Positions 55,011 to 56,385 are shown, counted from the stretch's first letter. The stretch: 64,000 nt of DNA from Escherichia coli (GCF_002854065.1 NZ_CP024147.1), one strand, 5' to 3'. Program-made: numbers and translations. The notes: generated from the letters alone by a model not told the origin.

Positions 55011-55198
55011 TATTTGTCCTTAAACCATAAATAATTAAAAATATAAACATTGCAATACATTGATTCAGTCAATAGCAATTATTTATACCCAGCCATTGAA
55101 TAAGCTATCCGATCTAACTAACAAGAAAATAGGTCGCATAAGAAGATATTCTTTGGTGTGGGCGGATGGTGATATTTTGTCTTGGTAATGACTCCAAC

Positions 55199-55702
55199 TT
55201 ATTGATAGTGTTTTATGTTCAGATAATGCCCGATGACTTTGTCATGCAGCTCCACCGATTTTGAGAACGACAGCGACTTCCGTCCCAGCCGTGCCAGGTG
55301 CTGCCTCAGATTCAGGTTATGCCGCTCAATTCGCTGCGTATATCGCTTGCTGATTACGTGCAGCTTTCCCTTCAGGCGGGATTCATACAGCGGCCAGCCA
55401 TCCGTCATCCATATCACCACGTCAAAGGGTGACAGCAGGCTCATAAGACGCCCCAGCGTCGCCATAGTGCGTTCACCGAATACGTGCGCAACAACCGTCT
55501 TCCGGAGCCTGTCATACGCGTAAAACAGCCAGCGCTGGCGCGATTTAGCCCCGACGTATCCCCACTGTTCGTCCATTTCCGCGCAGACGATGACGTCACT
55601 GCCCGGCTGTATGCGCGAGGTTACCGACTGCGGCCTGAGTTTTTTAAATGGCGGAAAATCGTGTTGAGGCCAACGCCCATAATGCGGGCGGTTGCCCGGC
55701 AT
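55199..55702 (-). CDS. insB: IS1 transposase InsB (expressed as InsAB' fusion by -1 frameshift)
   Basis: 167-aa product recognised as IS1 InsB. Confidence 0.92.
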
Positions 55703-55896
55703 CCAACGCCATTCATGGCCATATCAATGATTTTCTGGTGCGTACCGGGTTGAGAAGCGGTGTAAGTGAACTGCAGTTGCCATGTTTTACGGCAGTGAGA
55801 GCAGAGATAGCGCTGATGTCCGGCAGTGCTTTTGCCGTTACGCACCACCCCGTCAGTAGCTGAACAGGAGGGACAGCTGATAGAAACAGAAGCCAC
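55621..55896 (-). CDS. insA: IS1 repressor/transposase N-terminal protein InsA
   Basis: 91-aa product ([23 protein letters not shown]...) recognised as IS1 InsA. Confidence 0.92.
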
Positions 55897-56385
55897 TGGA
55901 GCACCTCAAAAACACCATCATACACTAAATCAGTAAGTTGGCAGCATCACCTTTTGTCTTTATTGTTTCAAATTATATTTACTTAACAGTGAATTAAGGA
56001 CCGCTTAATGTATAGCCAGAATAGAAATATTTTGAGGATTTTCTTATAAAAAAGAAATGAAATGCTTAAAAAAATATCTTACACATAATTTCAATTTATG
56101 AATAACCTGCGCAAAAAAGACAATCTTAGATTAAGTTTGAGATTGTACTTTTTTGAAGTTATACTATTAACACATCACAAATAATATTAAATTAAGACAC
56201 GAAAATATCATTTCTTTTTTATTATTAACTGTTCTATTAGTTTTATAATTTGTAAGAATATATTACAACTTAGTCTCATTTCGTCAGAAATTAATAGGGA
56301 AGCAGAGGAAAAAGTGCGATGAATTCTGTATCGAAGCGTATCAACTCCGTGAAAGGTTTTGAGTGAATATCTTCTATTGCAAAAA

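Follow-up and report, generated by a model that had tools for sequence, protein, structure and literature searches.

The window analysed in this study is a stretch of Escherichia coli DNA of 64,000 nucleotides (64 kb), and the only IS1 copy within it lies in the spacer between yfcV and sixA (Table 1). The gene order of the window is that of MG1655 2,401,024-2,463,715, a stretch that carries no IS1 in MG1655, and the statement in the first-pass annotation that K-12 has no IS1 at this site agrees with the MG1655 spacer. The same annotation described the rest of the window as collinear with K-12, which holds for gene order but not for this locus, where a different allele is present: yfcV shares 84% identity with its K-12 counterpart, and beyond about -175 from the yfcV ATG the distal spacer can hardly be aligned with MG1655 at all (43-62% in forced alignment). 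The MG1655 alignment ends at window position 55178, inside the left copy of the target-site duplication (TSD), and the block from -99 to -1 (window 55011-55110) is 91% identical to K-12, above the coding sequence itself. Such a conserved block next to yfcV, followed by a collapse of similarity at the insertion point, suggests either that the proximal control region is under constraint or that recombination had its boundary here. The window has all seven yfc ORFs open; the usher gene is intact (51726-54377, minus strand, 883 aa), and yfcU is a pseudogene in MG1655.

The element agrees with the definition of IS1 (about 768 bp, imperfect terminal inverted repeats of about 23 bp beginning GGT(G/A)ATG, and a TSD of 8-9 bp, typically 9) in its length and inverted repeats, insA, insB' and the A6C site between them, its score against a curated model, its TSD and its near-identity to known isoforms. 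IRL and IRR are canonical IS1 sequences that match each other at 18 of 23 positions. The InsAB' fusion transposase has 232 aa and scored 243.8 bits (cutoff 100, E = 1.4e-72) against the curated IS1 model NF033558 (NCBIfam), and since all parts are intact, the element is expected to be active in transposition. Among the MG1655 copies, IS1B and IS1C differ from it by 1 nt (767/768), the sole mismatch being at position 65 of the element if numbered from the IRR end; IS1A and IS1I differ by 8 nt. The IS1 copies of strains L73 and KL53 are 100% identical to it. Its GC content is 53.5%, insAB' reads in the direction of yfcV, and the IRR end lies 174 bp from the A of the yfcV ATG (173 bases between). 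The 9-bp duplication is perfect and can be extended by one base on neither side; under the local base composition, two fixed positions would agree at 9/9 by chance with a probability of about 2e-5. Thus boundaries, inverted repeats, ORFs, model score and coordinates all agree with what had first been described, namely a complete 768-bp IS1 with insA, insB, both inverted repeats and a perfect 9-bp TSD, placed 174 bp upstream of yfcV and read in the same direction. The hexamer GGTGAT, with which the IS1 left end begins, is also found in host DNA at 55168-55173, 2 nt upstream of the duplicated target, and may well be there by chance; IS1 hot spots at targets resembling IS1 ends have been described in older literature.

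Table 1. Features of the yfcV-sixA region in window coordinates (positions with a minus sign are counted from the yfcV ATG)
Feature	Coordinates	Strand	Remarks
yfcV	54447..55010	-	major fimbrial subunit, first gene of the yfc operon; ORF and annotation of identical loci
Proximal spacer	55011..55174	-	stays joined to yfcV; with TSD copy 173 bp, 30.6% GC; includes conserved -99..-1 block
Hybrid site at IRR/flank, toward yfcV	55169..55197	-	TTGGAG-17-TATCAC; 7/12, no T at -10 position 6
TSD, left copy	55175..55183	.	TTTTGTCTT; exact match to right copy
IS1, complete, isoform IS1B/IS1C	55184..55951	- (IRL to IRR)	768 bp
IRR, right terminal inverted repeat	55184..55206	-	GGTAATGACTCCAACTTATTGAT (plus-strand letters); yfcV-facing end
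insB' reading frame	55702..55199	-	joined to insA by -1 frameshift
Programmed -1 frameshift motif	55647..55637	-	TTAAAAAACTC (A6C slippery site); direct sequence read
insA	55896..55621	-	91 aa, GTG start
Promoter-like site at IRL end	55944..55917	-	CTGCCA-16-TATGAT; consensus scan
IRL, left terminal inverted repeat	55929..55951	-	GGTGATGCTGCCAACTTACTGAT; sixA-facing end; IS1 transposase promoter region
Hybrid site at IRL/flank, away from yfcV	55938..55966	+	TTGGCA-17-TATTGT; 9/12
TSD, right copy	55952..55960	.	TTTTGTCTT; exact match to left copy
Distal spacer	55961..56432	-	472 bp; now displaced 777 bp from yfcV
Perfect TATAAT	55977..55972 (-190..-185)	-	just upstream of the insertion point
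TTAATA-17-TACAAT	56170..56142	-	9/12; distal spacer
sixA terminator hairpin	56391..56425	both	folds at -16.0 and -19.2 kcal/mol; T-run after each

Several other features of the window were recorded on comparison with MG1655 and with strain 100416, the nearest relative. Inside yfdF (window 63479-64000) the collinearity with MG1655 is interrupted, and 63529-64000 aligns at 89% to a K-12 interval overlapping that of the preceding block; beside fadL strain 100416 annotates a different hypothetical gene. The cvpA-dedD spacer (29912-30362) holds a 91-bp unit with REP-like palindromes in 5.0 repeats (97% matches), present about once in MG1655 (2430913-2431014) and five times in strain 100416, and is probably a variable-number repeat locus. 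A yfcO-type adhesin gene (48585..49430, minus strand) has a tract of nine G on its coding strand at about 48986 and is in frame, and strain 100416 has eight G there, in a gene annotated as frameshifted; the tract is either slippage-prone and possibly phase-variable or reflects a homopolymer sequencing error in one assembly. At window 25568-26036, strain 100416 has an extra duplication of about 469 bp that is absent from the window; it lies between argT and hisJ, and its annotation is that of a partial pseudogene for a substrate-binding protein.

Empty sites and the age of the insertion

It had been proposed to look in MG1655 and other E. coli genomes for an empty site with a single copy of the target. 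However, the MG1655 yfcV-sixA spacer contains no TTTTGTCTT, so that the comparison with MG1655 is unworkable and an empty site can be met only in genomes carrying the present allele. The empty site was reconstructed by joining both flanks with a single TTTTGTCTT. In strain 100416, which has 22 mismatches to the window over about 63 kb, it was found in one piece at 360/360 positions, and it was covered at 80% or more in 428 genomes, O157:H7 among them; an empty spacer is also present in O55:H7. The IS1 is the sole insertion in the window relative to strain 100416, and the overlap between the two alignment blocks is precisely the 9-bp target. In each of ten representative assemblies with an identical YfcV, a 645-bp spacer separates sixA from yfcV and contains one uninterrupted AAGACAAAA. 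In contrast to the empty site, a 200-bp query across the IRR junction matched 0 of 5,426 complete E. coli genomes at 80% coverage or more, and the junction 44-mer GGCGGATGGTGATATTTTGTCTTGGTAATGACTCCAACTTATTG gave no exact match in metagenome contigs.

These results show a recent and lineage-private insertion by ordinary IS1 transposition, in which a staggered cut at TTTTGTCTT followed by repair produced the 9-bp duplication. Because strain 100416 and the assemblies with identical YfcV have the empty site, the insertion postdates the split from a very close relative. The first-pass annotation had called the insertion strain-specific and probably recent, which the missing junction and the exact empty site in the nearest relative and 428 genomes uphold, and it had named as contrary evidence the same IS1 at this position in MG1655 and most E. 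coli; what was found is an MG1655 spacer without IS1 and a junction in none of the 5,426 genomes. That the element is an IS1 and private to this lineage at the site is close to certain.

It is very unlikely that the IS1 is instead ancestral and was lost elsewhere by precise excision, or that a copy was misplaced during assembly, and we give these two readings hardly any weight. IS1-rich genomes do assemble poorly, and the relatives have about 39 or more IS1-matching places, but clean junctions and a perfect 9-bp duplication are what a real transposition leaves behind. Ancestry would require many independent precise excisions, since the empty site is found in 428 genomes, including the divergent O157:H7 and O55:H7 lineages as well as the nearest relative. 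Precise excision is rare for IS1.

Recurrent IS1 insertions in the AT-rich spacer

The spacer has a GC content of 27-31%, against 51.5% for the window, as expected from the initial description of an AT-rich yfcV-sixA intergenic region. GC is lowest in the distal part, with 27% for 55952-56432 (right TSD copy included) and 22.6% for 55952-56300. At its far end, the sixA hairpin probably acts as a bidirectional terminator, because it is predicted to fold well on both strands with T-runs on each side, and the spacer would thereby be shielded from sixA transcription. When 54300-57100 was scanned against Rfam (E <= 1), the spacer gave no match to a known RNA element.

Searches with IS1 in either orientation, followed by mapping, identified at least 14 distinct IS1 insertions in the yfcV-sixA spacer, this one included and at least 13 others independent of it. 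Counted from the ATG, they lie at about -18, -20, -174, -241, -289, -403, -450, -457, -469, -481, -481, -482, -511 (derived by hand from mapped coordinates) and -656, each with its own 8-9-bp TSD and with both orientations present. In 11 of them insAB' reads in the yfcV direction, against at least three in the opposite one, a count that is a lower bound because it rests on 40 of the 56 matches to the flipped IS1; this weak trend (two-sided binomial about 0.06) could hint at selection. The other insertions (strains ES8, ETEC4091, LR-03, KL53, 190, AF56, XJW9B277, CUVET20-1667, L73, VTB96816v, WP7-S17-ESBL-04, EC09 and DP051) belong to the same family and occupy the same AT-rich spacer of about 650 bp, but differ in position (-18 to -656) and all lie in the K-12-type allele; several are IS1 variants of 93-94%, and three have the opposite orientation. 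Further IS1 copies are found inside yfcV, in the yfcV-yfcU gap and in yfcU, and one yfcU copy is common to most of the 56 genomes in which the flipped-IS1 query reached a coverage of 80% or more, among the matches listed.

At about -481 in the K-12-type allele, strains L73, WP7-S17-ESBL-04 and VTB96816v have independent IS1 insertions within 1 bp, with TSDs ATGAGTGTC, TGAGTGTCA and TGAGTGTCA, respectively, the same 9-mer being used in opposite orientations by two of them. This cluster marks a local IS1 hot spot. An argument for a hot spot from the frequency per genome was rejected, since about 22 of 5,426 genomes (0.4%) carry a spacer IS1, close to what we calculate for a 650-bp target if about 30 copies were placed at random in a genome of 4.8 Mb, as in IS1-rich genomes. 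The case for a preferred target is instead made by how many independent events there are and how closely they cluster. H-NS has been shown to promote the transposition of IS1 into DNA of high AT content (PMC3000339), and the K-12 spacer is listed as an H-NS-associated 'promoter island' (PMC3661553). The present insertion fits this known preference of IS1 for AT-rich, H-NS-type DNA and is not remarkable in that respect.

Predicted effect on yfc expression

Yfc fimbriae are core-associated and functional but cryptic, and are repressed by H-NS (PMC3559732). In K-12, a genomic SELEX screen of RNA polymerase binding placed a constitutive sigma-70 promoter of yfcV, TTGAAA-17-TATAGT, and an H-NS site in the spacer (PMC3946193); the hexamers, assigned from the SELEX peak plus sequence, map to -412..-384, and their positional equivalent here lies upstream of IS1. 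The best sigma-70-like sites on the yfcV strand are likewise found at -500..-355 (9/12), all distal to IS1. The proximal 173 bp hold weak candidates only (8/12), among them CTGAAT-17-TATATT, which is conserved inside the -99..-1 block, the only strongly conserved one upstream of the gene, and still joined to yfcV. The K-12 island extends from roughly -1 to -467, so that there may be promoters on either side of the IS1. Our literature search found no published mapping of the yfcV transcription start site in any allele and nothing relevant on IS1 upstream of yfcV.

The terminal repeats of IS1 can supply an outward-facing -35 box to hybrid promoters (PMC8764528), and we looked for such a box that is followed after 16-18 bp by a good flanking -10 hexamer, both on the same strand as the downstream gene. 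Toward yfcV, the only such site is the poor match at the IRR junction, which fell below the threshold of the consensus scan and was not reported there, so that no good hybrid promoter of this kind faces yfcV. The better hybrid site, at the IRL junction, exists solely through the insertion and points through the distal spacer to the 3' end of sixA, in antisense. A scan for intrinsic terminators in 54900-56450 returned none, within IS1 or elsewhere, and also missed the sixA hairpin. The high-affinity H-NS motif with up to two mismatches has two weak matches in the distal spacer and none in the proximal part, which is thin evidence and a hint at most.

The insertion splits the control region, so that the conserved proximal 173 bp would be kept with yfcV, and the distal 472 bp with the best promoter-like sites would be pushed 777 bp away, behind a transcription-blocking element; transcription from the distal sites would now enter insAB' and not yfcV. 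Transcription of the host from upstream has indeed been reported to read into insAB' and to raise transposition (PMC12428005), and downstream expression was lost when an IS1 lay between the lac promoter and its target (PMC3000339). Because the best sites and the equivalent of the K-12 promoter lie upstream of the element, IS1 is at least as likely to sever yfcV from its promoters as to activate it, and because yfcV is faced by no outward promoter of good quality, expression of yfc would be expected to remain unchanged or to decrease, a direction toward which we lean slightly. Rho-dependent polarity was considered from base composition, on the expectation that the insB' RNA, for the most part untranslated, would resemble a Rho loading site, and was dropped, as the RNA downstream of the insA stop is G-rich and not C-rich (C/G 0.6-0.9); with this composition and no intrinsic terminator in IS1, polarity here rests on the literature and not on this sequence. 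We infer that the IS1 is a passenger event and not an activating mutation, and the best overall explanation, to which we assign a probability of about 0.6, is a recent passenger insertion that leaves yfc expression unchanged or lowered.

The first-pass annotation had suggested that the element might instead drive read-through into yfcV or free the promoter from upstream silencers, ideas that find no backing in the sequence, given a yfcV-facing hybrid site of 7/12 and best sigma-70-like sites that lie beyond the IS1. More broadly, activation or derepression of the cryptic yfc operon, through insulation of the bgl type, a weak hybrid promoter or insAB' read-through, seems rather unlikely. In the bgl-type route, 768 bp of 53.5% GC between a proximal promoter and a distal H-NS nucleation tract may weaken silencing, and should the CTGAAT-17-TATATT candidate be the real promoter, the IS1 would occupy the upstream position seen when bgl is activated. 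The conserved block and its weak candidate do still adjoin yfcV, and AT content is highest in the distal tract (22.6-27% GC), which has the only two H-NS motif matches of the spacer, but the motif evidence is very thin. Promoter candidates lie on both sides of the IS1 with the better ones distal, and H-NS association is known for the K-12 allele only. The promoter of IS1 is weak and autorepressed by InsA, and the hybrid site toward yfcV lacks the final T of the -10. The bias of 11 to at least 3 toward the yfcV orientation would suit activation, but the other insertions, scattered from -18 to -656 in both orientations, do not form the pattern of one selected activating geometry. Precedents exist on both sides: Yfc is cryptic and H-NS-repressed (PMC3559732), IS insertions are reported to switch on bgl by disrupting H-NS looping (PMC9678765), and an IS1 upstream of afaA in ST131 raised the transcript by about 7 log2-fold; however, in ST131 a same-orientation IS1 raised the downstream transcript only with a strong hybrid promoter, and in the other two cases it fell or was unchanged (PMC8764528).

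A narrower form, in which the IS1 uncouples the proximal yfcV promoter from the distal H-NS tract and partly derepresses Yfc, with the co-oriented recurrent insertions reflecting selection for altered Yfc expression, is improbable. The reverse proposal is that recurrent IS1 in and around yfcV reflects, beyond a preference for the target, selection to silence or modulate Yfc (immune or phage escape, or cost saving), the present element being an adaptive knock-down. Many independent IS1 events at the 5' end of the operon (spacer, yfcV, yfcV-yfcU gap and yfcU), the yfcU copy common to most of the 56 flipped-query genomes among the matches listed, and the yfcU pseudogene of K-12 itself would all be in keeping with it. 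Nevertheless, the large yfcU clade represents a single inherited event, spacer insertions occur in about 22 of 5,426 genomes (0.4%), roughly as expected at random, and the operon is already cryptic under laboratory conditions, which makes an adaptive knock-down quite improbable.

The insertion adds another site polymorphism of the best-known IS of E. coli, in DNA that IS1 favours, and matters little alone; the location is new and the element itself was already known. The junction could nonetheless serve as a lineage marker, because none of the 5,426 complete genomes has it. As a marker of uropathogenic potential, yfcV is in wide use. The insertion offers a natural experiment on the expression of cryptic, H-NS-silenced Yfc fimbriae, and this strain together with the approximately 13 other natural IS1 spacer alleles forms an allelic series that could locate the yfc promoter and its silencing elements.

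Comparison with known IS1 systems

The element shares with IS1B and IS1C of MG1655 its 768 bp (767 identical), inverted repeats, insA, insB', A6C site and 9-bp duplication, and differs by the 1 nt and by its site, which is unoccupied in MG1655 and in the 5,426 complete genomes. The activation of bgl by IS1 or IS5 (PMC9678765, PMC8836124) resembles the present case in that an IS enters AT-rich, H-NS-bound regulatory DNA of a cryptic operon; there, however, the insertions lie upstream of a mapped promoter and activation was demonstrated, whereas the best promoter candidates of yfcV lie beyond the IS1. The ST131 afaA insertion (PMC8764528) is likewise an IS1 upstream of an adhesin operon, in the same orientation and in an H-NS-regulated promoter region, but there a strong hybrid of the IS1 -35 and a flanking -10 accompanied the increase of about 7 log2-fold, in contrast to the 7/12 site facing yfcV. 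IS1E between the lac promoter and AAT repeats (PMC3000339) was found on a plasmid under selection against transcription, and its relevance here hinges on a distal yfcV promoter; with such a promoter, the two cases would have in common an IS1 that blocks downstream transcription and an insertion into AT-rich DNA favoured by H-NS.
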